A stretch of 64,000 bases of DNA from NCBI GenBank assembly GCA_036677365.1, contig JAVBWN010000014.1, positions 64,001 through 128,000 on the forward strand. Reading direction: 5' to 3'. Source of the DNA: Acholeplasma sp. GTDB taxonomy: Bacteria; Bacillota_I; Bacilli_A; Acholeplasmatales; UBA5453. Shown piece by piece: positions 6,226-62,956 of this stretch; position 1 is the stretch's first letter; each line of letters opens with the position of its first letter. The position numbers and the translations under genes are program-made. Under the pieces are notes generated by a model that ran no database searches, was not told where the DNA came from, and saw nothing but the letters and a program-made list of their open reading frames with translations.

Positions 6226-6365
6226 AGTTATAAATCCTCCTTCAACACTAACATTGTACTCCAAAATCTTATTTAAAACAAACCAAATGCTTATTTATAA
6301 AACCATGATTATTTGAAAAATGGAAACGTTGTGCTATAATAAGCCATGGCAAGTAGGTGCATTTT

Positions 6366-21457: not shown

Positions 21458-21841
21458 TTATAACTGAGTTTGGCAATTGGCACAGTAACCATACACCGTT
21501 AAATCATGACTGGTGATTTTGAAATGATGTTTTAGAGCGTCTTCATCCGCGACCCCATGAAAATGACAATCCATTTCGATCATCTTGTGGCACTTTAGAC
21601 AAACCATATAATGTTTGTGTTCAGAAGAAGCCAGTTTATAGTAAGCTGTATTGTCTAAGAATGTTTTTTCAACCAAATGGTATTGTAAAAACGTGTCCAT
21701 GATACGGTAAACCGTGGATAGATTCATCGAACCCAAAGGTTGTTTCGCATAAATCATTTCCGCCGATAATGGGGCTTTTTGTTTTTGCATAAAGTGCAAC
21801 AATTGTTGACGCTGTTTCGTCATTTTTAACACATCAGTCAC
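21458..21841 (-). CDS. zur: Fur-family regulator, probably Zur
   Basis: TKQRQ, LSAE, STVYR, HKHYMVCLKC, YGYCANC; last gene of zinc ABC operon. Confidence 0.8.
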   Translation of the reverse strand: MTDVLKMTKQRQQLLHFMQKQKAPLSAEMIYAKQPLGSMNLSTVYRIMDTFLQYHLVEKTFLDNTAYYKLASSEHKHYMVCLKCHKMIEMDCHFHGVADEDALKHHFKITSHDLTVYGYCANCQTQL

Positions 21842-22643
21842 GACCTTTCAATTTGGTAAATCCGAACAATGACATGAATAGTATACCATGAACAACGATG
21901 ATGGTCGACCCTGCAGGAATTCCCAGTAAATGGGCAAAAATAATGCCTAGGATGGAAACAACCGCATTGATCATTAATCCACGAATCACCATTTGTTTGA
22001 AGCTTCTTGAAATCATTTGAGACGATACCGCTGGGAAAATAATAAACGCGGATATCAATAAAGTACCGATGGTTTTAACCCCAATCACGATGATGATGGC
22101 GGTTAAGATGGCCAAAGCATAATCGTAATAGGCAATTTTAATGCCTGAAAATTTCGCGTAGTTGTCATCGAATGTGATGGAGAATAATTTTGAATACCCA
22201 GTAATGATGAATAGGGAAGTCAAGATTAAAACAGAAAACGATACCCAAATATCCAGCCATGTGGTAGAGAAGATTGACCCGACCAACATCGATTCAACCG
22301 ACCGATTGAAACCACTGGAGGTGGAAATGAGGATGAGACCGATCGCGAAGGAGAATGAAGAAACCAAACCAATCGCGGTATCGCCTTCAACCAACTTGTT
22401 GCGCATCAACCATTTGATGATGATGGCAGCGATGATGACGAAAGGAATCGCAATCCATATGGGTTCTTGTGCAAACAATACCCCAATAATGATCCCTGTA
22501 AAGCTGATGTGTGCTAACCCATCGCCAATCAAGGATTGGTTTTTAGAGACCAAAAAGCTCGATATGAAGCCTGTAGATAAGGCGAGTGTCAAACCAATTA
22601 AGATGGCACGAATCATGAAAGGCCATAAAAGAAAATCAAACAT
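21834..22643 (-). CDS. znuB: Zn/Mn ABC transporter permease
   Basis: SLIGDGLAHISFTG, LVGSI, IGTLLISAFIIFPA. Confidence 0.9.
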   Translation of the reverse strand: MFDFLLWPFMIRAILIGLTLALSTGFISSFLVSKNQSLIGDGLAHISFTGIIIGVLFAQEPIWIAIPFVIIAAIIIKWLMRNKLVEGDTAIGLVSSFSFAIGLILISTSSGFNRSVESMLVGSIFSTTWLDIWVSFSVLILTSLFIITGYSKLFSITFDDNYAKFSGIKIAYYDYALAILTAIIIVIGVKTIGTLLISAFIIFPAVSSQMISRSFKQMVIRGLMINAVVSILGIIFAHLLGIPAGSTIIVVHGILFMSLFGFTKLKGRD

Positions 22644-23295
22644 GGTGATGGTGACCTCCTTTTTTATGACCCAAGAGTTGGTACTGTTCAAAAGTACCAA
22701 AGAATTTAACAACTTGATCCAATTCTAAAATCCTCGAACCATGGCGTAATCCGTCACTCAAATCGTGGGTGACGTGGATGATGGTCATCCCTTGGTCGTT
22801 GAGCTTTTCGATGTAAGCATAAAAGAATTTTCGGAATTCAGGGTCGAGTGCTGAGGTTGGTTCATCCAAAATCAATACATCTGGATTCGATAATAAGGCA
22901 CGGATGATGTACACCCTTTGTTGTTCTCCACCCGATAATTTATTCATCGGTTGATATATAAAATCGAGCATCCCCATATCCGATAATAGCTTTTTAATGG
23001 CTTCATCGGTTGGTTTTTTAGCATTCGATAATTTCAATACTTCATACACATTCGCTGGAATTTGTGCACTTTGAGATAAATGCTGTGGCAAGTAGCCAAA
23101 AACCACAGGGGCGATGGTAATCTTGCCCTGTGATGGTTTTTGTAAATTGGTCAATAGTTTAATTAAAGTGGTTTTGCCTGAACCATTGGGTCCAATGATG
23201 TTCAAGTAGTCGCCTTTGTTCACATAAAAATCAATATCGGATAAAACAACGGAATTACCATATTCAACTTTTACGTGTTCGGCAGAAATAATCAT
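22636..23295 (-). CDS. znuC: Zn/Mn ABC transporter ATPase
   Basis: GPNGSGKT, LSGGEQQR, LDEPT, VTHD; C-terminal His tail GGHHHHV. Confidence 0.9.
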   Translation of the reverse strand: MIISAEHVKVEYGNSVVLSDIDFYVNKGDYLNIIGPNGSGKTTLIKLLTNLQKPSQGKITIAPVVFGYLPQHLSQSAQIPANVYEVLKLSNAKKPTDEAIKKLLSDMGMLDFIYQPMNKLSGGEQQRVYIIRALLSNPDVLILDEPTSALDPEFRKFFYAYIEKLNDQGMTIIHVTHDLSDGLRHGSRILELDQVVKFFGTFEQYQLLGHKKGGHHHHV

Positions 23296-23296
23296 G

Positions 23297-24229
23297 TTAT
23301 AAAACCCCATCCGTGAAATTCAGTTTGATATTGTTCAAATTCTCAGTCCACAATTCAACCAAAGTGGTTTTGGCTTTGAATTGGTCCTTAGAAACGTTAT
23401 GCATACTATGTAGTGGCATCAATACTATATCATAATTATACGCGGATTTTAAGTCATTTTTGATGGTATTCGCTACGCTCATCGATTCGAATGGGTCATA
23501 ATAAACATAACTTACCCCTGAACTACGAATCGCTTGAATCATTTGTGCAATTTGTGCAGAGGTTGGGTCTGCATCCGGGCTAAACGATTCGGTTAGGCTT
23601 ATGATGTTCAAATCGAATTCCTCATTCAACGAACTGAATACGTTATGACCAATGAAATAAATGGGTCTCGATGATGGGTTTTCAATGGTTAAGAATTGAG
23701 TGCGAATGTCTTTGAGCTGATTTTTCAATACCTCAGCATTCGCTGTATAAATGGCCTCATTTTCAGGATCAATTTGGATAATACTTTGAAGTACAGCTTC
23801 CACCATATGTATTTGTGTGTGTACGGATACCCAATAATGTACATCGTGTTCGTGTTCGTCATGATCATCTTCATGAACTTCACCTGGATGTGCTGCTTCA
23901 TGGATTTCTTCAGTTAAGGCTTCTAAATCCACAGCGATCACATCACTATCTAAGATGTCTACTGCCCAAGTTTCTAATTCAATTGATGCATAAATAAATA
24001 GCTTGGCTTGATTGATTTGAATGACTTGTTTAGATGTGGGTTCAAAATCATGGGCTTCCACCCCTGGCGAAAGGATCATGGTATAAGTCAAATCTTGGTC
24101 GCCGACAATGGTTCTGACCATGTCATACTGAGGGTATAAGGTCACGACAATATCATAGGTTTTGGTTTGGCATGCACTGAGGATCAGTGTAGCGAGTAAT
24201 GCTGGTAAAACGATGAAAATTTTCTTCAT
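23297..24229 (-). CDS. znuA: Zn ABC transporter substrate-binding lipoprotein
   Basis: Lipobox LSAC, EAHDFEPT, His/acid-rich loop, DVHYW. Confidence 0.9.
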   Translation of the reverse strand: MKKIFIVLPALLATLILSACQTKTYDIVVTLYPQYDMVRTIVGDQDLTYTMILSPGVEAHDFEPTSKQVIQINQAKLFIYASIELETWAVDILDSDVIAVDLEALTEEIHEAAHPGEVHEDDHDEHEHDVHYWVSVHTQIHMVEAVLQSIIQIDPENEAIYTANAEVLKNQLKDIRTQFLTIENPSSRPIYFIGHNVFSSLNEEFDLNIISLTESFSPDADPTSAQIAQMIQAIRSSGVSYVYYDPFESMSVANTIKNDLKSAYNYDIVLMPLHSMHNVSKDQFKAKTTLVELWTENLNNIKLNFTDGVL

Positions 24230-35921: not shown

Positions 35922-35951
35922 AAACTCTTTTCGTTGGGAAAGAGTTTTTTT
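35922..35951 (+). terminator. Riboswitch expression-platform terminator
   Basis: AAACTCTTT...AAAGAGTTT followed by a T run; loop GTTGGG can pair with aptamer CCCAAC (antiterminator). Confidence 0.85.
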
Positions 35952-35972
35952 GATCTTTGGAGGTATATAATC

Positions 35973-37124
35973 ATGGAAAGAAAACTATTTACATCAGAAT
36001 CAGTTACCAGCGGACACCCAGATAAAATTTGTGACCGCTTATCCGATGCCATCTTAGATGCCATCTTAAAAGAAGACCCAGAAGCCAGAGTGGCATGCGA
36101 AACCGCGGTGACGACCGGGCTTGTTTTGGTGATGGGGGAAATCACCACAAAAACATATGTAGACATACAAACCATTGTGCGCAATACCGTCGCAAATATC
36201 GGTTATGACCGTGGTAAATATGGATTTGACGCTGAAAATTTAGCCGTTTTGGTTTCAATCAACAATCAATCCCCTGACATTGCGATGGGTGTCGATGAAT
36301 ACGACGGCCACGAACAAGGTGCCGGAGACCAAGGTTTGATGTTTGGTTTTGCTTGTGATGAAACCGAAAATTACATGCCACTACCGATTGAACTCGCACA
36401 CAAATTGGTCAGACGTTTGGACGAGGTTAGACATCAAAATACATTAGATTTCTTAAGACCGGATGGCAAAGCCCAAGTGACCATTGAATACGATGAAAAT
36501 AACCGCCCGGCTCGAATTGATACCGTGGTGGTATCATCACAACACGCCGATATCGACATTGAAATCGTCAGACAAGGCATTAAAAAAGAAGTCATCGATG
36601 CGGTATTACCAAAAGCCTTAGTGGATGAACATACCAAATTCATGATCAACCCAACGGGTAAGTTTGTCGTCGGTGGTCCTAAAGGGGACTCTGGTCTAAC
36701 AGGACGTAAAATCATCGTGGATACCTATGGTGGTTATGCCCGTCATGGGGGTGGGGCTTTCTCAGGTAAGGACCCATCTAAAGTCGACAGAAGTGCATCT
36801 TACATGGCAAGATATATTGCAAAAAATGTCGTAGCAAGTGGGATTGCTTCTAAGTGTGAAGTTCAATTGGCTTACGCAATTGGTGTGGCTAAACCCGTAT
36901 CGATTCGCATTGATACGTTTGGAACAGCTAAAGTTGCCGATGAAAAAATCACCGAAGTCATTCGTAAACATTTCGATGTCACCCCTAAAGGCATCATTAA
37001 AACCTTGGATTTAAAACGTCCGATTTATCAAAAAACCGCGAACTACGGCCATATGGGACGTAGTGACATCGAATTGCCGTGGGAACGTTTAGATAAGGTT
37101 GATTTCTTTAAGCATTTATTATAA
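35973..37124 (+). CDS. metK: S-adenosylmethionine synthetase
   Basis: [28 protein letters not shown]; start 35973. Confidence 0.98.
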
Positions 37125-45006: not shown

Positions 45007-45772
45007 AAAGCTTGAACGTATCCGCTATGGCTACAAACTCACCATCGATGGTAAAATCACACCACTCGAAGAAGAAACGGTCGTCGTATTTAAACTTAGA
45101 AAAGACACGGAAATCGATGAAAAAACATGGCGAAAAATCTTAGAGGCCGATGCAATCCATGTTCAAAAAAGAAAAGCCATTGTACAGTTAAAAAAGCCCC
45201 AATCGGTCCATGAGTTTAAAACCTATTTGAGGGGGCTAGGCGTGGATGAGCAAAATATCGAGACTTGGACAAACACCTATAAAAAACTGGGCTATTTAGA
45301 TGATTTCGAATATGGTAAACTATTGGTAGAGGGCTACCAATCCAAGTATGGGGCTAAAAAAATCGAGTCCCTATTGAAGAATAAAGGATTACACTCAGAA
45401 ACCATCGAACGATTACTGCCCAAAAATGACGACGTATTAAAAAAACTCGTTCAAAAATCATGCAAATCGGTTCAAAAGTCCACCTATATCCAAGCCAAAA
45501 ATGCGATCATAAGGCAATGGATGGCCAAAGGGTTTGATTATGAAACCATCCAAACCTATGTGGACATGTATCTAGACCCAAAACGATTCAATGAAGATGA
45601 TAACATCGTTAAAGAATATAAAAAATTAAGAACAAAATACGAACGCACCTATCAAGGGTATAAATTGAAACAAAAAATCACCCAAGCACTGAGACAAAAA
45701 GGATTTACCGGTCAAAAGATCGAGCAAATATGCCTAGAAATGGAGAACGATTATGTACAAGATTTCGAATGA
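44996..45772 (+). CDS. recX: RecX regulatory protein
   Basis: LGYLDDFEY, YGAKKI..L..KG, KGFDYETI, QALRQKGF repeats. Confidence 0.85.
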   Translation: MKVEKLERIRYGYKLTIDGKITPLEEETVVVFKLRKDTEIDEKTWRKILEADAIHVQKRKAIVQLKKPQSVHEFKTYLRGLGVDEQNIETWTNTYKKLGYLDDFEYGKLLVEGYQSKYGAKKIESLLKNKGLHSETIERLLPKNDDVLKKLVQKSCKSVQKSTYIQAKNAIIRQWMAKGFDYETIQTYVDMYLDPKRFNEDDNIVKEYKKLRTKYERTYQGYKLKQKITQALRQKGFTGQKIEQICLEMENDYVQDFE

Positions 45773-47603
45773 AGATGCTTATTTCTTTATGCAGGGCAAA
45801 CTGTATGATGCCTATCGTATTTTTGGTGCGCATTTGATCAAAGATGAACAAGGCTACATCACAGGGACCCGTTTCACGGTGTACGCCCCCAACGCTGTGA
45901 TGGTATCGGTCGTGGGTGAATTCAATAATTGGCAAGAACATGCCCATACATTGAGTAAAATCGATGACATCGGTATTTGGTCTATCGAAATTCCGTGGAA
46001 TTTAGAATGGGCCAAATACAAATACGTCATTTTTACGAATCAAGGCAAATTGTATAAAGCAGACCCATACGCTAAATTCGCAGAAAACAGACCGAATACG
46101 GCTTCGAAAGTGTATGACATCGATGGGTATGAATGGCATGACCAAGATTGGATGTATACGAAAACAAAAGTCTATGATCAACCGGTGATGATTTATGAAA
46201 TGCACCTGGGTTCTTGGCGTACCCGTTATGGACAATTTTTTAAATTCAATGAAATCGTTGAACAATTGATCCAATACCTCAAAGAACAAAACTTTACCCA
46301 TGTCGAATTGATGCCGATATATGAACACCCATTGGATGATTCATGGGGCTATCAAGGCACAGGGTATTACGCAGCAACCGCCCGTTATGGGGTACCTAAA
46401 GATTTGATGTATATGATTGATCGTCTCCACCAAGAAGGGTTTGGGGTCATCATCGACTGGGTCCCTGGCCATATTTGTAAAGATGCCCATGGGTTATATT
46501 TCTTCGATGGGTCGCCATTATATGAACACGACGAAACCTGGAAGCGTGAAAATGAGGTATGGGGTACTGCCAACCTCGATTTATCGAAACCACAAACCAA
46601 GAGTTTCTTAATTTCAAACGCTTGTTTCTGGATGGATTATTTCCATGTGGATGGGTTTAGGGTGGATGCGGTATCTAACCTACTTTATTATTTAGGCGAT
46701 TCACGCAACGGTACTGACCAAGGTGCGATCGATTTCTTAAGACAATTATCACACGTCATTTTTGGTAAAGATGACCGTATTCTATTCATGGCAGAAGATT
46801 CCACAGCCCATGAAGGCGTCACCAAGCCGGTCGATGCGGGTGGGATTGGTTTTAATTATAAATGGAATATGGGATTTATGAATGATGTCCTCAGATACTT
46901 CAAACGTGACCCAATCCATCGTAAATGGCATCATCATGACATCACGTTCGGTTTGACCTATGCGTTCTCTGAACAATTCGTTTTACCATTTTCACACGAT
47001 GAAGTTGTCCATGGCAAAGGCACATTACTCACCAGAATGCCTGGCGATTATTGGCAAAAATTTGCGAATTACCGTTTACTCATGGGTTTATACATGACCC
47101 ACCCAGGGAAAAAGTTATTGTTCATGGGTCAAGAGTTCGCTCACTTCCAAGAATGGAGTGTCCACCGTCAACTCGACTGGAATTTATATGAGTTTAAATC
47201 GCATCACAATGCCAATGAATTTGTGAGAGATTTGTTATATTTATATAAATCTGAACCCGCTTTACATCAATTAGACCACTCAAAAGCAGGGTTCGAATGG
47301 ATTGACTCACAAAACGCTGAGCAATCGATCTTTAGCTACATCCGTTATGGTAAAAACAAAGAAGACCACGTGATCGTTGTCTTAAATATGACGCCAGTCG
47401 TATACCACCAATATGAGATTGGGGTCCCGATGGCTGGGGTCTACGATGAAATCATCAACAGTGATTTAATGAAGTATGGAGGGTCTGACCAATACAATGG
47501 GTTACCCCTTGAAACACATGAAGGTCAATGTCACCATCAATCACAGTTCGTTCAGATGACTATTGGGCCATTAACGGCACTTATTTTGAAGTATCGAAAA
47601 TAA
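45753..47603 (+). CDS. glgB: 1,4-alpha-glucan branching enzyme
   Basis: IYEMHLGSW, HPLDDSWGYQ, DWVPGH, DGFRVDAV, AEDST, SHDEVVHGK. Confidence 0.96.
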   Translation: MYKISNEDAYFFMQGKLYDAYRIFGAHLIKDEQGYITGTRFTVYAPNAVMVSVVGEFNNWQEHAHTLSKIDDIGIWSIEIPWNLEWAKYKYVIFTNQGKLYKADPYAKFAENRPNTASKVYDIDGYEWHDQDWMYTKTKVYDQPVMIYEMHLGSWRTRYGQFFKFNEIVEQLIQYLKEQNFTHVELMPIYEHPLDDSWGYQGTGYYAATARYGVPKDLMYMIDRLHQEGFGVIIDWVPGHICKDAHGLYFFDGSPLYEHDETWKRENEVWGTANLDLSKPQTKSFLISNACFWMDYFHVDGFRVDAVSNLLYYLGDSRNGTDQGAIDFLRQLSHVIFGKDDRILFMAEDSTAHEGVTKPVDAGGIGFNYKWNMGFMNDVLRYFKRDPIHRKWHHHDITFGLTYAFSEQFVLPFSHDEVVHGKGTLLTRMPGDYWQKFANYRLLMGLYMTHPGKKLLFMGQEFAHFQEWSVHRQLDWNLYEFKSHHNANEFVRDLLYLYKSEPALHQLDHSKAGFEWIDSQNAEQSIFSYIRYGKNKEDHVIVVLNMTPVVYHQYEIGVPMAGVYDEIINSDLMKYGGSDQYNGLPLETHEGQCHHQSQFVQMTIGPLTALILKYRK

Positions 47604-47626
47604 AATGTAATCGTTTGCAAAAGAGA

Positions 47627-47651
47627 AGGCACCTTTCGATGAGGTGCCTTT
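47627..47651 (+). terminator. Hairpin between glgB and glgP (terminator or stabiliser)
   Basis: AAGGCACCT-TTCGATG-AGGTGCCTT with a weak T tail. Confidence 0.55.
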
Positions 47652-47693
47652 ATGGTATAATCACAATGGATTAATACTGTAAGGAGAACACAC

Positions 47694-50102
47694 ATGTCAA
47701 ATATATTTGAAAATACAGCCATTTTTAAAAAAGCATTCGTGGAACAAGTAGAAAAGACATATGCGATCGATTTTAATACCTCTACCAGTTACCAACAATA
47801 TGTGGCCTTGGGGACCTTACTCAAAGAACACATTGCTTTGGACTGGAAAGAAACAAATAAAATCGAAGCGGATAAACGTCAAGTCTATTATTTCTCAATG
47901 GAATTTTTAATGGGACGCATGATTACCAATAACTTAATGAATGCCGGCGTTTATGACGTCGTTAAATCCGCTTTTGAAGATTTAGGATTGGATATCAATG
48001 AAATCGAACACAAAGAAACCGATGCGGGTTTAGGTAATGGGGGTTTAGGTCGCTTAGCGGCTTGTTTCATGGACTCTGTCGCTGCTTTAGCACTACCGGT
48101 TCATGGCAATTGTATCCGTTACCGTTATGGCTTTTTTAAACAAAAAATTGAGAACGGCTATCAAGTTGAATACCCTGACCGTTGGTTAAAAGACATCCAC
48201 GTTTGGGAAGTCAGACGCGATGAAGAAGCGGTGGACGTGCCATTTTATGGCTACATTGAACTTTCGGTCATCGATGGTAAACTCAATGTATTCCATCGAA
48301 ATGCAGAATATGTCAAAGCCGTACCTTATGACGTACCGATTGTCGGTTATAACAACCAAGTCGTCAATACCTTACGCTTATGGAGTGCTGAACCGAGCGA
48401 CCGTTACCAAAACCAAGGTGGGACTTTCGATTACCATAAGAAACTCAGACAAATCTCAGAAATGCTTTACCCGAATGATGATACCGATGAAGGTAAAATT
48501 TTACGTCTCAAACAACAATATTTATTTTCGAGTGCAGGCGTGAACGCCGTCATAAAAAAACATAAGAAGTTGTTTGGTACCTTAGAAAATCTGGCAGAAA
48601 AAGCGGTATTCCACATCAACGATACCCATCCAACCTTAATCATTCCAGAATTGATGCGTATCTTGGTCGATGAAGAATCGATGGAATGGGAACACGCATG
48701 GGACATCACCAAACGTTGTGTGGCTTATACCAACCATACCATTTTAGCGGAAGCTTTAGAAAAATGGCCAATCCGTTTGTTCCAACCATTGTTACCTCGA
48801 ATTTATACCATCACAGAAGAAATCAACCGTCGTTTTGAAATTGAACTCAAACAACGCTTTGGTGAAAATGCCAGAGAAGTAGAAAACATGCAAATCCTCA
48901 AAAATGGCATGGTGCACATGGCCAATTTAGCGATTGTTGGTTCATTTTCAGTGAATGGGGTTGCACAGCTACATACCGATATCTTAAAAGACATCGAAAT
49001 GCGCGATTTTGCCCAATATTATCCGAATAAATTCAATAATAAAACCAACGGGATTACCCACAGACGCTGGGTCTTACAAAGCAACCCTGAAATTGTATCT
49101 ATCTTAAAGGATACGATTGGGGATGCATGGATTACCGATACGTCAAAACTGGAAGGTTTAGTCAAGTTTGCTAATGACGCATCGATTCAAAAACGATTTG
49201 AAACGATGAAGTTGGCAAGAAAACAAGCCTTAGCAGACAAGATTTATAAAGAACAAGGCGTCAAACTCAACCCACACGCGATTTTTGACATCCAAGTCAA
49301 ACGTCTCCATGAATACAAACGCCAATTGATGAATGCCCTTCACATCATGCATCTATACAATGAATTGAAGTCCAATCCTGAAATGCGTAAGCAATTCTAC
49401 CCACAAAACTTCATTTTTGGTGCGAAAGCAGCACCGACTTATTGGTTTGCGAAAAAGGTCATCAAATTGATCAATACCATAGCGGATAAAGTCAACAATG
49501 ACCCAGATACCAATGAACTATTGAAAGTTGTGTTTGTGGAAGACTATAATGTCACCTACGCTGAAACCATCATGCCGGCGGCTGACCTATCAGAACAAAT
49601 CTCGACCGCTTCCAAAGAAGCTTCGGGTACTGGGAACATGAAGTTTATGATGAATGGTGCCATCACGATTGGAACACTCGATGGTGCGAACGTTGAAATC
49701 GCTGATTTTGTCGGTGAAGAAAACATCATCATCTTTGGTTTAAATGCGAAAGAAGTCACCGATCTATATAAGAAAGGTAACTACCAACCCTATGAAATGT
49801 ATCAAAAAGACCCGAGAATCAAAAAGGTCTTAGACCAACTCACCAATGGGTTCTTTGAAAAAGTCCCACCGTATGAGTTTGAAGATATCCGTAGAAATCT
49901 ACTCGAACGCGATGTCTACCTCGTACTTAAAGATTTTGATGCGTATGTTGCGGCACAAGCCAAAGCCAACAAGTTATATCAAAATCGACCACAATGGCTG
50001 AAGATGTCCATCATGAATACCGCGAAGTCAGGATTCTTCTCGACAGACCGTACCATGGCGGAATACAACAAAGACATTTGGCACGTTGAAAAAATCAAAT
50101 AA
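47694..50102 (+). CDS. glgP: Glycogen/maltodextrin phosphorylase
   Basis: LGNGGLGRLAAC, INDTHP, YTNHT, KRLHEYKRQ, EASGTGNMKF (PLP lysine). Confidence 0.97.
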   Translation: MSNIFENTAIFKKAFVEQVEKTYAIDFNTSTSYQQYVALGTLLKEHIALDWKETNKIEADKRQVYYFSMEFLMGRMITNNLMNAGVYDVVKSAFEDLGLDINEIEHKETDAGLGNGGLGRLAACFMDSVAALALPVHGNCIRYRYGFFKQKIENGYQVEYPDRWLKDIHVWEVRRDEEAVDVPFYGYIELSVIDGKLNVFHRNAEYVKAVPYDVPIVGYNNQVVNTLRLWSAEPSDRYQNQGGTFDYHKKLRQISEMLYPNDDTDEGKILRLKQQYLFSSAGVNAVIKKHKKLFGTLENLAEKAVFHINDTHPTLIIPELMRILVDEESMEWEHAWDITKRCVAYTNHTILAEALEKWPIRLFQPLLPRIYTITEEINRRFEIELKQRFGENAREVENMQILKNGMVHMANLAIVGSFSVNGVAQLHTDILKDIEMRDFAQYYPNKFNNKTNGITHRRWVLQSNPEIVSILKDTIGDAWITDTSKLEGLVKFANDASIQKRFETMKLARKQALADKIYKEQGVKLNPHAIFDIQVKRLHEYKRQLMNALHIMHLYNELKSNPEMRKQFYPQNFIFGAKAAPTYWFAKKVIKLINTIADKVNNDPDTNELLKVVFVEDYNVTYAETIMPAADLSEQISTASKEASGTGNMKFMMNGAITIGTLDGANVEIADFVGEENIIIFGLNAKEVTDLYKKGNYQPYEMYQKDPRIKKVLDQLTNGFFEKVPPYEFEDIRRNLLERDVYLVLKDFDAYVAAQAKANKLYQNRPQWLKMSIMNTAKSGFFSTDRTMAEYNKDIWHVEKIK

Positions 50103-55301: not shown

Positions 55302-56149
55302 AACAAGTCCAATGGTTCCCAGGACATATGTCCAAAGCTTTAAGAGAAATTAAAGAGTCTTTAAAACTCGTGGACATTGTCTTCGTTTTATTGGATTCGC
55401 GTTTACCCGAATCTTCAATGAACCCGAGAATTCAAGAAATCATTGAAAAAAAACCGGCATTACTGCTGTATACCAAATCCAGCATGGCCGATCAAAAAGA
55501 ACTCAATAAATGGTTATCACATTATGCCAGTCAAGGCTTAAAAGGGTTGAAAATTGACGCCATTACGGGCTTAAATATCAACAAAATCAAAGAAGCAACG
55601 TTGGAAGTTTTAGAAGAAAAAATCGCGAAAGACCAGCGTCGTGGAATTTTACCGAGGGCCATTCGAACGATGATCATCGGTATTCCAAACGTGGGTAAGT
55701 CGACACTGATCAATACATTATCGAAGAAGAAAGCAGCCAAAACGGGCAATACGCCTGGTATCACCAAGGCACAACAATGGATCAAAATTTCTGAAGACTT
55801 TGAGCTTCTCGATACCCCAGGGGTATTATGGCCGAAATTTGATGACCCTAAGGTGGGGTATCATTTAGCCCTCAGTGGCGCGATTAAAGATGCCATTTTA
55901 CCCAATGAAGAAATCGCTGTTTATGCCCACCGTTTTTTAAGTCAATATTACCCCGAAGCGTATAAAGCACGCTATGAATTGACAGATTTATCCGACATCG
56001 CTCAAACTTTTGAACACATCGGTAGAAAACGTGGCACCTTAATGAAAGGCAACATCGTCAACTACGATTTGGTATATGATATTATCTTAAAAGATCTTCG
56101 CGATGGTGCATTTGGAGGGATTACCTTTGACCGATTTGAATCTGTATGA
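55298..56149 (+). CDS. rbgA: Ribosome biogenesis GTPase RbgA/YlqF
   Basis: QWFPGHM, GIPNVGKSTLIN, LLDTPG. Confidence 0.96.
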   Translation: MKQVQWFPGHMSKALREIKESLKLVDIVFVLLDSRLPESSMNPRIQEIIEKKPALLLYTKSSMADQKELNKWLSHYASQGLKGLKIDAITGLNINKIKEATLEVLEEKIAKDQRRGILPRAIRTMIIGIPNVGKSTLINTLSKKKAAKTGNTPGITKAQQWIKISEDFELLDTPGVLWPKFDDPKVGYHLALSGAIKDAILPNEEIAVYAHRFLSQYYPEAYKARYELTDLSDIAQTFEHIGRKRGTLMKGNIVNYDLVYDIILKDLRDGAFGGITFDRFESV

Positions 56150-56756
56150 ATTTGAAGATGCCTTATATGCAAAAGGCATTACTTATATTGCGGGTACGGA
56201 TGAAGCTGGTCGGGGACCGCTTGCCGGACCGGTGGTGGCTGCAGCCGTCATATTAAGAAAAGGGGCTGTGATTGAAGGGGTCGATGATTCTAAAAAACTC
56301 ACCGATAAAAAACGCCGTGGTCTCATTGACACCATCAAAAAAGAAGCATTGGCTGTGGGCATTGGCATTGTGTCCCCACAAGAGATCGATCAAATCAATA
56401 TTTATCGTGCAGCCAAACAAGCGATGATTTCAGCCATCAAAGCGCTAAAAATCAAACCCGAATACATCCTCGCCGATGCCATGATGTTGGAAGATGAACT
56501 CGGGATTCCCACCGAATCGATCATCAAAGGTGATCAAAAATCCGCAAGTATCGCAGCCGCGAGTATTGTTGCGAAAGTCACACGAGATGAATATATGATT
56601 GAAATGGATAAACTATTCCCGATGTATGGGTTTAAAAAGCATATGGGTTACCCAACCAAAACCCACATCGAAGCCATTGAAAAGTATGGCATTTGTCCAA
56701 TCCATCGAAAAACATTTGAACCAATCAAGTCAATTATTAGGGAGAAATTATTATGA
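56127..56756 (+). CDS. rnhB: Ribonuclease HII
   Basis: GTDEAGRGPLAGPV, DDSKKL, KGD, IAAASIVAKVTRD; TTG start 56127 after GGAGG. Confidence 0.96.
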   Translation: MTDLNLYEFEDALYAKGITYIAGTDEAGRGPLAGPVVAAAVILRKGAVIEGVDDSKKLTDKKRRGLIDTIKKEALAVGIGIVSPQEIDQINIYRAAKQAMISAIKALKIKPEYILADAMMLEDELGIPTESIIKGDQKSASIAAASIVAKVTRDEYMIEMDKLFPMYGFKKHMGYPTKTHIEAIEKYGICPIHRKTFEPIKSIIREKLL

Positions 56757-57811
56757 AGTGGCCGAGAATACTCAAACGATTTTTCATCATTCTATTGTTT
56801 ATATTTGGATTTTTGGTGCTTTTTGAAGCGAGTCCAAAAGCATTATCTTATCCAAATGATAACCCATGGATCAACCATGAACTCCGCCCTTGGATCATTC
56901 CACATGGGGGTGCGAAAGCTTTATATCCAGAAAATACCATCTATGCTTTCAAACAAACTGCCTTTTATGACGCATTTGAAGTGGATTTAACCTTGACCAA
57001 AGACGATATTTTAATTTCTCACCACGATTTGGATTTAAGACACGATTTATTAACCGATGTGTTAACGGACGATTTAATCATTCGAAACCTCACCTATGCA
57101 GAAATCGTCAATTTGATCAAATTCAATGATTACCCTTACGTCAGACAATTCACCGACATCCACGGGAATAAACCGTATGCTCAAATCAATGACCCATTCA
57201 TCATGAATCAAATGCTGCCGATGAAACTTGAAGATTTATTTACATCCTATCCGAATCGAAGATACATCCTTGAAATCAAAGATGTGAGAACCGATGAAGA
57301 AGATACCTTCACCATCGCAGCACATAAATTGGTGGAACTGATTGAAATGTATCACATGCATGACCAAGTGATGGTATCGTCATTCTCAGATGAGGTCATC
57401 GAACATTTCCTTGAAATATCCCATCACTCCATCCATGCTTCAACAGCAACCAGTGAGACGTTGAATATGGTGTTGTTATCTGCATTCAACTTAGATTTTT
57501 TCTATAGACCCGCTTACGCAGCTTTAGCGATTCCGATCGATTCTGGTTTATCGGATAGTCAAGGCAAACTCATTGGTAGCTTACCAGGTTTTATCAGTCG
57601 AAGAATTGCCCATCAAGTGAATGGACAATGGCGTACCAATTTAGCACAAACATCACTTGTAGAAGATGCCCATAGACACAACATGTCGGTCATATTTTGG
57701 ACCGTGAATGACGTTGATGATATGCGAAAACTGATTGAACTCGGTGTAGATGGGATCATCACAGACCGTCCAGATTTATTGTTCGCACTTTACGAAGAAT
57801 TGGGATTATGA
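56753..57811 (+). CDS. Membrane-anchored glycerophosphodiester phosphodiesterase
   Basis: HGG..PENT..AF, EVDLTLTKD..HD, EIK, WTVND, GVDGIITDRP. Confidence 0.9.
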   Translation: MKWPRILKRFFIILLFIFGFLVLFEASPKALSYPNDNPWINHELRPWIIPHGGAKALYPENTIYAFKQTAFYDAFEVDLTLTKDDILISHHDLDLRHDLLTDVLTDDLIIRNLTYAEIVNLIKFNDYPYVRQFTDIHGNKPYAQINDPFIMNQMLPMKLEDLFTSYPNRRYILEIKDVRTDEEDTFTIAAHKLVELIEMYHMHDQVMVSSFSDEVIEHFLEISHHSIHASTATSETLNMVLLSAFNLDFFYRPAYAALAIPIDSGLSDSQGKLIGSLPGFISRRIAHQVNGQWRTNLAQTSLVEDAHRHNMSVIFWTVNDVDDMRKLIELGVDGIITDRPDLLFALYEELGL

Positions 57812-57829: not shown

Positions 57830-57863
57830 ATGTGAGAATATGAACAATTCTCACATTTTTTTT
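57830..57863 (+). terminator. Terminator after GDPD gene
   Basis: ATGTGAGAAT-ATGAACA-ATTCTCACAT followed by a T run. Confidence 0.85.
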
Positions 57864-57964
57864 GAATATCAACCGTTTTTTTGGGTTGGATTACCAATTC
57901 ATAACCGCTATAAATAACGATTATGTTAAAATGAAATTATAGATAATAAATCGAAGGTGAATTT

Positions 57965-59968
57965 ATGAGTATCCAAACAACCACTGAATTTATAAAACTA
58001 CATCAAATTGGTCCAATCAAAGTCGATGAAAACTTGTTGTTCAATGGCTACTTGTATTATTCAGATAAATCGAGTACGTTGATTGACTTGCCAACCTCGG
58101 AATGGATGGTTGCTTATAAAGAACGCATCGAACTCATTACACCGATAGATCAAATTCAAAATTTAATTATTGCTTACCCTAATTTTTCATTGATTGCTTC
58201 ATTAAAAGCACTCATTACGATGGGCTTCAAAGGGGCCATCATATCGACCCGCGGGATTGCCAAACAAATCGTTCAAAACAACATTAAACTCCCCGTGACG
58301 ACCATTGAAAAATTAGAATACAAGCTTTATGCACAAGACTTTAAACTGAATTTTTTACCGATTCAGTTTTTACCATTTACGAGTGCATTCATGATTTATG
58401 AATCGGAAACCCGTTCATTGATATCAAATTCACTATTCTCCAGTTTTAAAGTCGATAATCCAAATGAAACGGTTCAACTCAAACAAGGCATTTTTGCCTA
58501 CCACAAAACCAATTTACCATCCTCAGAATACCTAAAGGACCCCATTAGAAGACTGCGTCAACATCGCATTGATGCTATTTGTCCTGTTTATGGTTATGTG
58601 CTAGAAAACGATGTCGATGGCTGGATTGAATATGAATACCAATTGGATTTTTATAATGCAGGTCAAGTGTTTAAATACAATGAAGAATTCATCAAAGAAT
58701 TTAACTATGTCGAAATCATCAACCATATGATCAACCATTTGCATAAATCCTTAGATGCCAAAGATATATTAGAAACGTTTTCGAAATCCGAATTCATATT
58801 GAGTGAACGACCGCTCGAATTGGTCAATTCCACCCATGTGGGCTATAAGTTATGGCACGCCTTTTTCGAATACCTATACGCGAAAAAAGGGACGGTATGG
58901 TTGACCATTCTCGAACCGCTCATCAAACGCTACCACAACATTTTTGGGTTAGATTTACCGGCCATCTATGTTTCAAAAATGATGGAAGTGACCAAAGAAA
59001 ATGAGCTCTTAGAACAAGATAAAAAAGCGTTGGAACAAAACCTTCAAAAATTGGAAGCACAAATTGAAGAGACCAAAGAAGCGCTATTGAAATGTCCAAT
59101 CACCAAATTATACACCGAAGAAGTCCTACGTGCTTTACTGAAAAAAGATTTGGAATCGTCTGAATTTTTTGAGAAAAACAATGGTTTTATATTGATTCAA
59201 TTAGACCAACTCTATGACATCAACAAACGCTATGGTAAAGATACTGGGGATGAAGCCATCCGTAATTTAGCTTATGTGATTGGACAAATCGCACCAGATG
59301 AAGTCAAACTATTCAAACAAAATGGGCCAGGCATCTTGATGTATGCGTCGTGTGAGAAGAAAGAAAATATCACCAATTTGGCTGTTCAGGTTAGAAACGC
59401 TGTAAGAGATTCGGTACTATTCATTGAAAAAGTGACGGCCAGTGCTTCTTTAGTCTACTATGAAGAATTGAATCCAGTGCTCACCAGAGACAATAAAATC
59501 AAAGAAATTTTCACATTGCTAGAACAACGCATCCGTTTAGCAAAACAATTGGGTTACGGTGAAATTATTGATAACAGTGCCGCTTTGCCTGCACTTAAAG
59601 AAGGCATTATCCTGCTCGTCGATGAAGATGACATGAACCGAAATATGTTGGTTCGTGTGTTTAATCGTTTGAACTTTGACGTCAAAGCTGTGACTTCAGT
59701 TGAAGATGCTTTAGCTACCCTAAGAGAATATCCGATTGATATCATCATCTCTGAAATTAATTTATCTAAGATGGATGGGTTCTCGCTCAAACGCGAACTC
59801 AATGAGTCTAAAACATTTTCTAACATCCCGTTCATCATGGTATCTCACAATAAGACCGTTGAAAACATCCGTCGTGGCAATTTACTCAATGTCGATTTGA
59901 TCATTGAAAAACCAATCATCCCTGAGGAATTGATTGGCCATGTCAAGCGCTATCGAGAAAGAAGGTAA
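57965..59968 (+). CDS. Multidomain signalling protein: degenerate MBL/di-iron-like domain, coiled coil, degenerate GGDEF, atypical receiver
   Basis: TLID, FMIYESETRSLIS, ICPVYG (MBL/FDP-like); CPITKLY, INKRYGKDTGDEAI, KQNGPG; ILLVDED, ISEINL..MDG, IPFIMVS, KP. Confidence 0.75.
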   Translation: MSIQTTTEFIKLHQIGPIKVDENLLFNGYLYYSDKSSTLIDLPTSEWMVAYKERIELITPIDQIQNLIIAYPNFSLIASLKALITMGFKGAIISTRGIAKQIVQNNIKLPVTTIEKLEYKLYAQDFKLNFLPIQFLPFTSAFMIYESETRSLISNSLFSSFKVDNPNETVQLKQGIFAYHKTNLPSSEYLKDPIRRLRQHRIDAICPVYGYVLENDVDGWIEYEYQLDFYNAGQVFKYNEEFIKEFNYVEIINHMINHLHKSLDAKDILETFSKSEFILSERPLELVNSTHVGYKLWHAFFEYLYAKKGTVWLTILEPLIKRYHNIFGLDLPAIYVSKMMEVTKENELLEQDKKALEQNLQKLEAQIEETKEALLKCPITKLYTEEVLRALLKKDLESSEFFEKNNGFILIQLDQLYDINKRYGKDTGDEAIRNLAYVIGQIAPDEVKLFKQNGPGILMYASCEKKENITNLAVQVRNAVRDSVLFIEKVTASASLVYYEELNPVLTRDNKIKEIFTLLEQRIRLAKQLGYGEIIDNSAALPALKEGIILLVDEDDMNRNMLVRVFNRLNFDVKAVTSVEDALATLREYPIDIIISEINLSKMDGFSLKRELNESKTFSNIPFIMVSHNKTVENIRRGNLLNVDLIIEKPIIPEELIGHVKRYRERR

Positions 59969-59973
59969 TCCGA

Positions 59974-62799
59974 ATGACATTACCTGTTTTGATTGTGTTG
60001 ATTGCGTTTTTAGCGCTAGTAACCATCCTCATTTTGATGATTATTTTACAAAAAATTCACTACATACGTTTGACCAAAAAGCACATATTGGCGAGAGATT
60101 ACTTATTCAAAAAATACTTTGATTTAGAAGAAACCACACCGAAAGTATCCAGTCGGTTCTTTTTTGATGCTTACATCGATATCGAAACACAAATCACCAT
60201 AGAAGATGCGGTTAGAAAACGCATCATTGATGATTTGGAAACTTTGAAATTTACCAAAAAACAATACAAGCGAATTCACAGTTTTTCACCATTTAAACGT
60301 AAAATCGCCGTGTTTTACCTACAAACTTTAAAAACCAAAAAATCAAAGGATGCCTTGGCTTCCAGACTCGCCATTGAAAAGAATGACTCGGTTCGTTTTT
60401 ACATCATTTATGCGATGGATGCGCACATTTCTGCACACGATTTTGATTTCATTTTAAGAACGTTATCGACCTCACGGGAATCTTACCCACACTGGATTTA
60501 TGCCATCTTAAAAAACCGTTTTGAATCGATCAAAGGGTATTTACCAGACTATTTTTCAGACCGACGTAAAAAAGTGAAACAGTTTATTTTATATCTATCT
60601 AATCATATATACAATGACCAATTAAAACAATACGCCATCAGTCGTTTCATGGATTTAAATGAAGATAAAGACATTCGAAAAGAAGCCATCCGTGCCTTAT
60701 CGACGATGTACCCGGAAGAATTGGTCACCGATACTTATTTGAACCATGAGGATGAGCAAATCCGTAAAATGGCCATTCGTGCGTGCTCAACCGTGGTTAC
60801 CCAAGAGATGACCCAAGCGCTTCTCAATCAAATGGATGGGACATTGATGGACATTGAACGCGCGAATGCGCTCTCCCGTATTGTTTTTGATTCTAAAAAG
60901 TTATTGTTATATGTCCTTGAAAAATACCCAACGACAAAAAATGATTACCAAAAAATGGCGATATCCCGCGTTTTATCACACCATCTGGATTATTTGATGT
61001 TGAAGCTCAAATCCAATGAATACCCCCAGGTCAAAAGCATCATTCAGGATTTGCTCAAAATGCATATCATTGAGGATTTGATTGATTTTATCAACATGAA
61101 TAAAGACAAAGAAGTCGAAAATAGTATGATTCAACTGGTCCGTACTTATGCAACACAAGACAAATTTTTACTTGATGAGTTTTCGGTTTACCTCAATCAA
61201 AAGTTTTTAAATAAACTGGGATTGATCAAAAAACCAATGCCAACATCCGTCAGAGAAAAGACACCTTTTGAATTGAATAAAGTGGTATGGATCAGCTTTT
61301 GGATATCAATCGCTGTAACGATCTTCCCAATTCTTTTTTTAATTTTTAATTTTAAAGCGATTTTTTCGGGTGAACCTTTATTAGAATGGTTTATGATCAG
61401 CATGAACCGCTACTTATCTTATTACTTTATAATCATCAATACGATATACCTGATTTTGATGTTATTTTCCATCAAAGGCTCTATTGAACGTATGGCGATG
61501 TGGCGTATTAAAAAACAAACCTTATTGTTTGAACACGATTTATTACCATCGATATCGATCATCGCGCCAGCTTACAATGAAGAAAAAAGCATCATTGAAA
61601 GCATCACTTCATTACTCAATTTGAAGTATCCAAAATACGAAGTTGTGGTGGTCAACGATGGGTCAAAAGACGATACGATCGGTACGTTGGTTAGACATTT
61701 TGAGCTTGAACGAAAACACCCATTTTTTCAAATGAAGCTCAGAACCAAACCACTGCGAAGTGTTTATGTCAGTAAACAAATTCCCAATCTGATTGTCATC
61801 GACAAACAAAATGGTGGGAAAGCGGATGCTTTAAACATGGGCATCAACGCAGCTAAAAATGATTATATATGCGGCATCGATGCCGATTCATTGCTAGAAG
61901 AAGATGCTTTACTCAAATTGATGAGCGTCACCCTTGATGACGCCACCAACCACATCGCGATTGGTGGGAACATCGTCCCAGTCAACGGATGTAACGTCGA
62001 TAAGGGTAAAATCGAAAAGAGTGGCTTGGGTAAAAATCCAATTGTCCGTTTTCAAACTTTAGAATATTTAAGAGCCTTTACGACGGGTCGTATTGGCTGG
62101 TCAAAGCTCAACAGTTTATTGATCATATCTGGGGCTTTTGGTTTATTTAACCGGCAATCGCTCATCGAAACAGGTGGTTATTTAACCATCAGTGGGGATT
62201 TAAAGAAAGATACGGTCGGTGAGGACATGGAATTGGTGGTGCGATTAACCCACAAAGCCATCCAAAACAAGAAAGCCTACCGTGTATCCTATGTCCATAA
62301 CGCCAACTGCTACACCGAATTGCCATCCGATTTGAAATCCTTGTTAAAACAGCGTAACCGTTGGCAACGTGGTTTACTCGATATCCTCAGTTACCACAGA
62401 CAAATGCTCTTTAACCCGAAATACCGTCAGCCGGGTTTATTGGGGTTCCCTTATTTCTTCATATTTGAGATGATGGGACCATTCATTGAGATGATGGGTT
62501 ACATCGCACTCGTGGTCAGTTTATTCATGGGGTTATTGAATGCTGAACTGGTCATCTTGTTGTTTTATGGGTCGATTGGGTATGGCATCATCATATCCCT
62601 ATTCAGCTTATGGATTTCAGAACGTCAAAGCGGATTTTACCGAATCAGAGATGCGTTCATATTGATTATTTTAGCCATCGCAGAAAACTTTGGTTACCGA
62701 CAAATCATGAGTTTACACCGAGTCAAAGCAACCTTCGCAGCCCTTCGTGAGAATGGGTCATGGGGTAGTTTATCCAGAACTGGATTCCAAAAGAAGTGA
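59974..62799 (+). CDS. HEAT-repeat / processive GT2 glycosyltransferase fusion
   Basis: N-terminal TM, helical repeats (DIRKEAIRAL, QIRKMAIRA), PAYNE, DGSKD, NGGKADALN, IDADS, SGAFG, GED, QRNRW, C-terminal TMs. Confidence 0.9.
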   Translation: MTLPVLIVLIAFLALVTILILMIILQKIHYIRLTKKHILARDYLFKKYFDLEETTPKVSSRFFFDAYIDIETQITIEDAVRKRIIDDLETLKFTKKQYKRIHSFSPFKRKIAVFYLQTLKTKKSKDALASRLAIEKNDSVRFYIIYAMDAHISAHDFDFILRTLSTSRESYPHWIYAILKNRFESIKGYLPDYFSDRRKKVKQFILYLSNHIYNDQLKQYAISRFMDLNEDKDIRKEAIRALSTMYPEELVTDTYLNHEDEQIRKMAIRACSTVVTQEMTQALLNQMDGTLMDIERANALSRIVFDSKKLLLYVLEKYPTTKNDYQKMAISRVLSHHLDYLMLKLKSNEYPQVKSIIQDLLKMHIIEDLIDFINMNKDKEVENSMIQLVRTYATQDKFLLDEFSVYLNQKFLNKLGLIKKPMPTSVREKTPFELNKVVWISFWISIAVTIFPILFLIFNFKAIFSGEPLLEWFMISMNRYLSYYFIIINTIYLILMLFSIKGSIERMAMWRIKKQTLLFEHDLLPSISIIAPAYNEEKSIIESITSLLNLKYPKYEVVVVNDGSKDDTIGTLVRHFELERKHPFFQMKLRTKPLRSVYVSKQIPNLIVIDKQNGGKADALNMGINAAKNDYICGIDADSLLEEDALLKLMSVTLDDATNHIAIGGNIVPVNGCNVDKGKIEKSGLGKNPIVRFQTLEYLRAFTTGRIGWSKLNSLLIISGAFGLFNRQSLIETGGYLTISGDLKKDTVGEDMELVVRLTHKAIQNKKAYRVSYVHNANCYTELPSDLKSLLKQRNRWQRGLLDILSYHRQMLFNPKYRQPGLLGFPYFFIFEMMGPFIEMMGYIALVVSLFMGLLNAELVILLFYGSIGYGIIISLFSLWISERQSGFYRIRDAFILIILAIAENFGYRQIMSLHRVKATFAALRENGSWGSLSRTGFQKK

Positions 62800-62821
62800 T
62801 CCTTAGCCGGATGACTTCTTT
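62790..62821 (+). terminator. Hairpin after GT2 gene
   Basis: AAGAAGTGATCC-TTAGCC-GGATGACTTCTT followed by an AT-rich tail. Confidence 0.6.
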
Positions 62822-62927: not shown

Positions 62928-62956
62928 TTGACAGGGGTATAGACCCTATATATAAT
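62928..62956 (+). promoter_or_regulatory. Consensus sigma70 promoter of topA
   Basis: TTGACA (62928), 17 bp spacer, TATAAT (62951). Confidence 0.85.

Follow-up and report, generated by a model that had tools for sequence, protein, structure and literature searches.

The window analysed here, that is, the whole stretch of 64,000 nucleotides (nt) of Acholeplasma sp. DNA, contains at positions 57965-62799 two adjacent genes, of which the first (gene 1) encodes a protein with three enzyme-type domains and the second (gene 2) a predicted membrane-bound HEAT-GT2 polysaccharide synthase. The two open reading frames (ORFs) are separated by 5 nt, and the features of the pair and of its flanks are collected in the table.

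Table. Coordinates of the gene pair, its domains and its flanking features within the window
Feature	Position	Strand	Evidence or detail
rnhB	56103-56756		Pfam RNase_HII 1.8e-43
GDPD-family gene, between rnhB and the pair	56753-57811		Pfam 3.9e-27
Upstream intrinsic terminator	57830-57864	+	10-bp stem (57830-57856) and T-run; closes the GDPD gene
Extended -10 TGTTAAAAT, putative promoter of the gene pair	57924-57932	+	Read directly in the sequence
Shine-Dalgarno sequence AAGGTG of gene 1	57954-57959	+	5 nt before the ATG at 57965
Gene 1	57965-59968	+	ORF, 667 amino acids (aa); Pfam ODP, GGDEF and Response_reg
ODP/flavodiiron-fold domain, residues 10-228	57992-58648	+	Foldseek 6qrq_B, TMt 0.74, root-mean-square deviation 3.2
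Family-specific middle domain, alpha/beta, residues 229-332	58649-58960	+	Conserved GYKLW..FFE..KKG..WL..LEP block
Long helix or coiled-coil stalk, residues 333-376	58961-59092	+	Single model helix 333-375
Degenerate GGDEF-like domain, residues 377-540	59093-59584	+	NGPGI for GG(D/E)EF, PDEV for RxxD
Pseudo-receiver, residues 546-667	59600-59965	+	Glu597 at the phospho-acceptor position
Shine-Dalgarno sequence GAAGG of gene 2	59961-59965	+	Within the end of gene 1; gene 1 stop TAA 59966-59968
Gene 2	59974-62799	+	ORF, 941 aa, ATG at 59974; predicted membrane HEAT-GT2 synthase
N-terminal transmembrane (TM) helix, residues 1-28	59974-60057	+	Hydropathy peak 3.46; model helix 2-49
HEAT-like alpha-solenoid, predicted cytoplasmic, residues 29-430	60058-61263	+	HEAT_2; about 24 stacked helices, residues 60-415
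Two TM helices, residues 431-512, returning the chain to the cytoplasm	61264-61509	+	Hydropathy 436-466 and 480-504; model helices 434-458 and 469-512
GT-A catalytic domain, residues 513-812	61510-62409	+	Four motifs; Foldseek hyaluronan synthase
C-terminal membrane/interface helices, residues 813-941, putative polymer channel	62410-62796	+	Model helices 815-852, 857-885, 891-903 and 908-925; hydropathy 833-881
Terminator-like hairpin over the gene 2 TGA stop	62790-62821	+	12 pairs, one mismatch; then UUUAUUU
topA promoter, TTGACA-17-TATAAT	62928-62956	+	12/12 match to the sigma-70 consensus; consensus scan
topA	from 62965		Pfam Topoisom_bac 1.3e-61

Gene 1, for which 59 homologues were found, matches the Pfam families ODP (PF19583; residues 26-210, 3.4e-14, 53.6 bits with a cut-off of 27.2), GGDEF (residues 378-481, 1.9e-07) and Response_reg (residues 549-660, 7.7e-18), and its structural model has a pLDDT of 86.6. 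In Foldseek comparisons the N-terminus also matches flavodiiron proteins and the centre of the protein matches the coiled-coil GGDEF protein 6ttr (TMt 0.81), while the model displays a receiver fold, with its (beta-alpha)5 pattern, at residues 547-666. A search of the Atlas with the middle domain gave no usable match. Hydropathy analysis detected no hydrophobic or TM segment in gene 1, which is predicted to be a cytoplasmic, soluble protein and probably forms a dimer with a long coiled-coil stalk.

All three enzyme-type sites of gene 1 are dead in this organism, as judged from the residues found at each of them. Seven His/Asp motif residues of the ODP fold (HQDPD, LH, S-x-D, FH, QHG), which we take to be metal ligands, were defined from the alignment of the homologue at locus L028 with the solved structures 6qrq and 6qnm, and only one of the seven, H180, is kept in gene 1, which reads YNSPSHY where the motifs read HDDHDHH. 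The test for the diguanylate cyclase motif failed, with NGPGI at residues 453-457 in the GG(D/E)EF position, as did the test for the inhibitory site, with PDEV at residues 444-447 in the place of RxxD, whose register five residues before the GGDEF position we assume from PleD. In the receiver-like domain, Glu597 aligns with the SD of the RcsC receiver, and because a Glu occupies the Asp site this domain cannot be phosphorylated. It is the most conserved part of gene 1: a conservation of >=90% is reached by 52 of 122 columns when 20 close homologues are aligned and by 17 of 122 when 47 are. We therefore rejected gene 1 as an active cyclase, since the GG(D/E)EF motif is absent, and as a phosphorylatable regulator, since the phospho-acceptor Asp is absent. 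The initial annotation had read metallo-beta-lactamase/di-iron-like, GGDEF-like and receiver domains in this protein and had considered all three non-catalytic; the Pfam and structure matches agree with it on the domains, and the single ODP residue kept, NGPGI and Glu597 agree with it on their sites.

Gene 2 matches several GT2 models of Pfam at residues 525-854 (3.8e-24 to 4.4e-07) and, just above the cut-off, HEAT_2 (1.8e-06, 28.6 bits compared with 27.7). The four motifs of processive GT2 enzymes were located at residues 562-566 (DGSKD), 636-639 (DADS), 749-751 (GED) and 793-797 (QRNRW), and their key residues D562, G563, S564, D566, D636, D638, E750, D751, Q793, R794 and W797 do not vary among 53 homologues, nor do the key residues in a smaller set of 26. 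The AlphaFold model (pLDDT 88.2, pTM 0.84) starts with an N-terminal TM helix and a stack of about 24 helices, continues with a pair of TM helices and the GT-A domain and closes with a C-terminal bundle of membrane and interface helices, and a sequence profile of gene 2 matches designed alphaRep HEAT-like proteins at residues 88-303. Motifs and TM helices were thus found as the initial annotation had described them, and the HEAT domain that it had named is supported by Pfam, by the alphaRep matches and by the all-helical repeats of the model.

The topology of gene 2 can be predicted from the distribution of lysine and arginine (K/R). Seven such residues at positions 28-60 and five at 415-436 flank the HEAT domain, the loop preceding the GT domain is K/R-rich, and the loop between the second and third TM helices (459-470) is not, with a single K/R. 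From this pattern the positive-inside rule places both the HEAT and the GT domain in the cytoplasm and thus, together with the lack of a TM segment in gene 1, in the same compartment as gene 1. In the Foldseek search that had been suggested for this protein, the C-terminal half of gene 2 is closest to the hyaluronan synthase 8smp_A (3.9e-13, TMt 0.60), and after the hyaluronan synthases come BcsA and chitin synthases, over about 500-790 columns; the nearest folds are therefore hyaluronan, cellulose and chitin synthases. Gene 2 has both the motifs and the flanking TM or interface helices of the processive GT2 class, and we classify it, on the strength of its sequence and model, as a predicted processive membrane GT2 polysaccharide synthase that would produce a polymer. 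Its best NCBIfam model is PgaC_IcaA (TIGR03937), which it matches with 121.1 bits; because this is far under the cut-off of 422.3, gene 2 is no equivalog of any named synthase. We rejected gene 2 as a synthase of poly-N-acetylglucosamine, given this score and the absence of PgaB or PgaD neighbours; no deacetylase family was found among the 51 other ORFs of the window that were scanned, and the immediate neighbours of the pair are the GDPD gene and topA. The cellulose synthase model CelA likewise gives 48 bits with a cut-off of 699, and the Pfam matches of the pair include no PilZ or MshEN domain.

The gene pair is predicted, from its sequence signals, to form its own transcription unit, because a terminator lies upstream, a hairpin lies downstream and topA has its own promoter. 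The upstream terminator folds with -11 kcal/mol (z -2.85) and is equalled by 3 of 200 shuffles; the hairpin over the gene 2 stop folds with -16 kcal/mol (z -3.78), is equalled by 1 of 200 and is absent from the list of the terminator scan. No -35 match was found for TGTTAAAAT, which is also absent from the consensus promoter scan, and the promoter call for the pair is consequently based on the extended -10 element by itself. We give the scan little weight because it returned 12 sites overall, fewer than the 23 expected from shuffles. No c-di-GMP (cyclic di-GMP) riboswitch or other Rfam match was found in the leader of the pair. The gene order is ftsK, lepB, rbgA, rnhB, the membrane GDPD-family gene, the pair and topA; the best NCBIfam model of the GDPD gene, lysophosphatidylglycerol phospholipase D (1.3e-29), scores far under its cut-off. 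The two closely spaced ORFs, the terminator, the extended -10 and the hairpin had all been reported before and are all present. The pair had also been placed in the interval between rnhB and topA, and Pfam identifies both flanks, but the GDPD-family gene that shares this interval had been omitted. In Firmicutes, dprA normally precedes topA.

To place the pair in a wider context, we scanned one genome per species with an alignment of gene 2, which gave at least 80 loci, with no locus of the closest species among them; the counts that follow refer to the loci listed. The closest named proteins, from Acholeplasma/Paracholeplasma vituli, are 77-78% identical, from which the organism is taken to be a wall-less bacterium resembling Acholeplasma. 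The long HEAT-GT2 form is found at 42 of the loci and a short form at 37. At one long-form locus (L021:3026-6065) HEAT and GT2 lie on two ORFs, by a frameshift or a true split; the locus L032, which is cut at a contig end, does not allow a judgement. In all 40 long-form loci with upstream DNA, an ORF like gene 1 lies directly upstream on the same strand, and in 22 of the 40 it overlaps gene 2 by 4 nt. Long-form loci occur in Acholeplasmataceae, in other Mollicutes including Izemoplasmatales and in Bacilli, in Clostridia (Clostridium sp., Eubacteriaceae, Oscillospiraceae, Lachnospiraceae, Syntrophomonadaceae) and in Spirochaetota (Sphaerochaeta, Marispirochaeta, Treponema, Rectinemataceae). This neighbourhood survey supports the earlier view of the two genes as a genuine unit, whereas the view of the module as a compact peculiarity of Acholeplasma has to be given up in the light of its wide distribution among Clostridia, Bacilli, Izemoplasmatales and Spirochaetota.

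The genomic position of the pair is not conserved: ftsK, lepB, rbgA, rnhB, the GDPD gene and topA were found as flanks in none of the 80 loci, and because these six flanking genes of the window are missing from all of them, the pair appears to travel as a cassette. The pairwise distances of gene 1 and gene 2 co-vary (Mantel r 0.83 for 26 pairs; maximum 0.29 in 2000 permutations). In a quick maximum-likelihood tree (IQ-TREE) of 79 GT2 domains, from which the partial sequences of L010 and L041 were left out, one branch with SH-aLRT support of 100 parts all 42 long-form from all 37 short-form domains, and the GT2 domain of the window falls in a clade of 15 Mollicutes/Bacilli sequences, also with support of 100.

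The partners encoded next to the long form vary at their N-termini. The full architecture of ODP, middle, GGDEF-like and receiver-like domains is present at 27 of the 40 loci, and at 5 more with the middle domain below threshold; 7 partners, one of them cut by a contig end, consist of GGDEF-like and receiver-like domains only, and in one the N-terminus lies beyond a contig end. A profile of the middle domain matches 28 partner ORFs. The shortest partners, with about 300-330 aa at five complete loci and 522 aa in L036, carry GGDEF-like and receiver-like domains only, according to Pfam, and the HEAT domain is full length also at loci with the shortest partners. We further noted two partners of 1079 aa, whose N-termini are longer by about 430 residues (L033 and L034:4078-7317), and in the Syntrophothermus metagenome-assembled genome at L019 (2394-5021, minus strand), this one locus only, a flavodiiron protein just upstream of the pair that is fused to flavodoxin, pyridine-nucleotide oxidoreductase and rubredoxin-like domains. 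Moreover, 11 long-form loci, among them L026 (10136-13300), encode after HEAT-GT2 a conserved protein of about 1055 aa that has no Pfam match and no counterpart in the window; it occupies the +1 position in 8 of the 11, and an Atlas search gave it only a weak glycoside-hydrolase or 'beta-galactosidase' lead.

The states of the three sites differ across the family. None of the 39 aligned partners has a canonical GG(D/E)EF motif, and the phospho-site of the receiver-like domain is Glu in 36 of 40 partners, Asp in 3 and Gly in 1, on which grounds the dead GGDEF and the Glu-receiver are ancestral to the whole family. Within the GGDEF-like domain, three positions that we take to be metal (Mg)- and guanine-binding in active cyclases are largely kept, namely D414 (39/39), N420 (30/39) and D429 (32/39). 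Of the 32 partners with an ODP domain, 17 have all of its motifs, and six further partners are without the domain; because so many are intact, the dead ODP site is a later, lineage-specific loss. The partner of L028 (Eubacteriaceae bacterium ES2) matches solved ODPs at 6.6e-28 and has their motifs in common. Decayed motifs are found in the window, in its nearest sequences in the GT2 tree (L001, L002, L004, L005 and L017, which keep one or two of the seven residues) and in some spirochaetes.

At the short-form loci, 37 in number, GT2 genes encode about 470 aa and have no HEAT part. The GT2 ORF was retained by our approximate gene calling at 25 of these loci, and in 16 of the 25 a cluster of ORFs of about 380 aa occupies the -1 or -2 position; the one representative that was scanned is a HEAT-repeat protein (HEAT_2 9.6e-31). 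Also near short-form GT2 genes are single-domain receivers, PAS/GAF hybrid kinases, Hpt-REC-GGDEF-REC proteins, whose GGDEF match is strong (1.7e-41), and a protein of TPR and YaiO beta-barrel parts. Most receivers of these loci have the Asp, the exceptions being L045 (Q), L049 (E), L056 (A) and L063 (A). Receiver, HEAT and GT2 parts thus exist as separate genes in many phyla, as had been supposed. A search of 1.84 billion representatives with a HEAT-only profile returned 326 proteins at E <= 1e-30, a number inflated by long repeat proteins, and a C-terminally fused receiver was found in 3 of the 6 longer single-match HEAT-GT2 representatives examined. Receivers therefore recur beside, or fused to, the HEAT/GT2 synthase family in every arrangement seen. 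At L077:6525-9440 (Calidithermus chliarophilus), a 121-aa receiver abuts an 850-aa HEAT-GT2 fusion, and because this sequence groups with the short forms in the tree, a second, independent HEAT-GT2 fusion is suggested.

We propose that the pair is a self-contained operon for a surface or secreted polysaccharide in which the core of the partner binds and controls the synthase, a reading to which we give a slightly better than even chance. According to this model, gene 2 would be the polymerase-translocase, its GT-A domain embedded among membrane helices, and would alone suffice for polymer export on a wall-less cell. The core of gene 1, made of the GGDEF-like and receiver-like domains that are constant across the family, cannot make c-di-GMP; it would bind the synthase on its cytoplasmic side, with the HEAT solenoid as the most likely site, and set its activity. 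The N-terminal ODP-fold domain may serve as an exchangeable input, which in many Clostridia and spirochaetes keeps the motifs of solved iron/oxygen sensors. Because these motifs are lost in the lineage of the window, the partner here would either be a constitutive subunit or respond to some other signal, for which a guanine nucleotide bound by the GGDEF-like domain is one possibility. The anatomy of the pair, its motif states, strict linkage, topology and fold kinships are shown by the data, whereas contact between the two proteins, the way in which control runs, its signal and the polymer are inferred, and we believe that binding of the partner core to the synthase is the most economical reading because the HEAT arm is the hallmark of the long form, the partner core is linked to it and receivers occur in every arrangement.

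Several observations weigh against this proposal. Any two genes inherited together should be closely linked in their operon and diverge in step, which is no proof of binding, and the HEAT domain, the supposed docking site, is only moderately conserved, with 8 of 402 columns at >=90% in 53 sequences. The receivers fused to HEAT-GT2 proteins are divergent (profile E-values 3e-14 to 3e-09), their phospho-site residues being D, Q and D and in no case E, and no fusion of gene 1 with gene 2 was found among the longer proteins, whose 10 matches are all through the receiver, which is weak evidence. In addition, no sugar-nucleotide, deacetylase or hydrolase gene adjoins the pair in the window, and with PgaC_IcaA, the best NCBIfam model, far below its cut-off, the models do not give the identity of the polymer.

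That the two genes are mere neighbours with no functional tie is hardly credible in view of an adjacency without exception over several phyla, the stop/start overlap in more than half of the loci and the fully supported branch between long and short forms. We also regard it as very improbable that gene 1 of the window itself still senses oxygen, iron or redox state through its ODP-fold domain: the fold is retained, as the Pfam score and the similarity to 6qrq_B indicate, and about half of the relatives keep all seven motif residues, but the window protein has only H180 left and its nearest relatives have hardly more. Lipoglycans and membrane glycolipids are known surface components of Acholeplasma, and gene 2 might extend such a molecule rather than make a free capsule or exopolysaccharide, which we consider quite unlikely. 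GT2 enzymes make glycoglycerolipids in mycoplasmas, as stated in the accessible text of PMC11658790, and a gene of the membrane GDPD family of lipid phosphodiesterases lies just upstream of the pair; however, the same text describes multiple TM helices as the mark of polymer synthases and glycolipid GT2s as having none, and gene 2 has several. Furthermore, QRNRW and GED are invariant, the best-matching folds are polymer-translocating synthases, a terminator stands between the GDPD gene and the pair, and the GDPD gene is missing from the 80 loci.

A further alternative concerns the input only and is compatible with docking: gene 1 may be a nucleotide receptor whose GGDEF-like domain binds GTP or c-di-GMP and relays its level to the synthase, in the way that PelD, PssE and YdaK relay the second messenger to their glycosyltransferases. 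The conservation of D414, N420 and D429, presumably the Mg and guanine positions, speaks for such a role, as does the membrane GGDEF(GGDGF)-EAL protein encoded at 1421-3058 of the window, whereas the lack of an RxxD inhibitory-site motif and of a riboswitch in the leader speaks against it, and on balance we find it somewhat unlikely. Acholeplasma laidlawii, too, is reported to have 14 GGDEF/EAL proteins in the portion of PMC2408644 that was available, which adds to the case for a receptor.

Beyond the binding of the partner core, we tentatively consider, as a possibility that is still doubtful, a messenger-free switch in which an ODP iron/oxygen sensor acts directly, through a dead cyclase and a permanently 'phosphomimetic' Glu-receiver, on the HEAT arm of the synthase. 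If this were true, a change in oxygen or iron would cause spirochaetes and anaerobic Firmicutes to start making a protective glycan, with no need for a kinase or c-di-GMP; the decayed sensor of Acholeplasma would leave a constitutive or re-purposed activating subunit; and the unfused receiver/HEAT/GT2 clusters with Asp would be a phosphorelay-driven version. Partners with intact, decayed and absent ODP domains in one family form a natural comparison set, so that the role of a pseudo-enzyme domain in signalling becomes directly testable, and since no wall or outer-membrane export parts are needed, the pair would be a convenient minimal system for reconstitution. The pair is also a candidate capsule or biofilm determinant in Acholeplasmataceae, which the accessible part of PMC2408644 describes as common cell-culture contaminants.

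Other features of the window include, at 1421-3058 on the minus strand, the GGDEF-EAL protein mentioned above, a 546-aa membrane protein (GGDEF 2.8e-34; EAL 8.4e-69 with the usual motifs) that represents c-di-GMP turnover machinery in a mollicute-like genome and that is, given its GGDGF motif, probably no cyclase. Beside it lie two adjacent ORFs with a transposase helix-turn-helix and an rve integrase core (3205-4784, minus strand), which we take to be an IS3-like insertion sequence, and a superoxide dismutase gene is found at 5632-6264 (minus strand). At 21461-24229 (minus strand) a gene for a Fur-family regulator precedes a metal-uptake cluster of ZnuA, ABC-3 and ABC_tran. The sole Rfam match of the window at gathering score is a SAM riboswitch (RF00162; 35820-35916, plus strand; 58 bits, 8e-11) immediately upstream of the gene for S-adenosylmethionine synthetase at 35934-37121, and genes for a glycogen branching enzyme-like protein (CBM_48/alpha-amylase) and glycogen phosphorylase at 45753-50099 (plus strand) indicate storage-glucan metabolism in a genome that is small.

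Finally, we compared the module with known systems. The Pel system (PelD-PelE-PelF-PelG) likewise combines a degenerate GGDEF domain, an alpha-solenoid and a glycosyltransferase at the membrane for an exopolysaccharide, but PelD binds c-di-GMP at an RxxD motif that gene 1 does not have, its TPR-like solenoid is a protein of its own, its transferase belongs to GT4 and not to processive GT2, and it is not known to have a receiver or ODP domain. In PssE/PssC and YdaK/YdaM a degenerate GGDEF protein likewise stands beside a GT2 enzyme and is needed for a Firmicute exopolysaccharide; unlike gene 1, PssE and YdaK use an I-site and c-di-GMP, and these systems are not known to have a HEAT, receiver or ODP domain. 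BcsA (with PilZ), PgaCD and NfrB are likewise processive GT2 systems with D, DxD, (T/G)ED and QxxRW motifs that are gated from the cytoplasmic side, whereas the present pair has no PilZ or MshEN domain and its gate would be the HEAT solenoid and a separate protein. Class I hyaluronan synthases (8smp and 7sp7, among others) are the best structural match of the C-terminal half of gene 2, but they share only 14-18% identity with it and have neither a HEAT domain nor a dedicated partner. The ODP chemotaxis sensors of Treponema denticola and Thermotoga maritima (6qrq, 6qwo, 6qnm, 6r9n) have the fold of gene 1 residues 10-228; gene 1, in contrast, has lost six of the seven motif residues, and its predicted output is a polysaccharide synthase, not a chemoreceptor.

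Parts of this picture have precedents in the accessible text of published work. The Listeria PssE/PssC and Bacillus subtilis YdaK/YdaM pairs are treated in PMC4125290, and ODPs fused to signalling domains have been noted before (the TREND paper, PMC7319448, citing Muok 2019). The synthase motifs of gene 2 uphold the earlier reading of a polysaccharide synthase in a wall-less bacterium, although such an enzyme is not new there: mycoplasma capsular GT2 synthases make galactan, beta-1,6-glucan and glucofuranan, and, likewise, a single membrane synthase both makes and exports the homopolysaccharide (PMC11658790, available text). Neither a HEAT domain nor a regulatory partner forms part of their description, and the words 'HEAT', 'regulat' and 'Acholeplasma' do not occur in that text (PMC11658790). 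The GGDEF domain of Staphylococcus aureus GdpS recruits a protein instead of acting as a cyclase, as is proposed for gene 1, but its partner is a diacylglycerol kinase, and GdpS is membrane-anchored and has no receiver or ODP domain (PMC11962490, accessible text). The term ODP has no occurrence in the census-type review of c-di-GMP sensing PMC8846402, and no description of the gene pair or module was found in the literature outside subscription journals and supplements, which agrees, within that scope, with the initial view that the architecture is undescribed.

Taken together, the module resembles partner-gated synthase-dependent systems (Pel, Pss/Yda, Bcs, Pga) in the way it works and at the same time fails the defining tests of each of them; the absence of an I-site, a PilZ domain, a PgaC-level score, a cyclase motif and a phospho-Asp sets it apart. 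The wide conservation of the pair suggests that the production of surface glycans may be switched in a manner not yet described. Known processive synthases are gated by c-di-GMP (through PilZ, PgaCD or MshEN) or by I-site GGDEF receptors, and to these the module would add a control route in which the HEAT arm of the synthase is read by a partner that combines a dead cyclase with a Glu-receiver.

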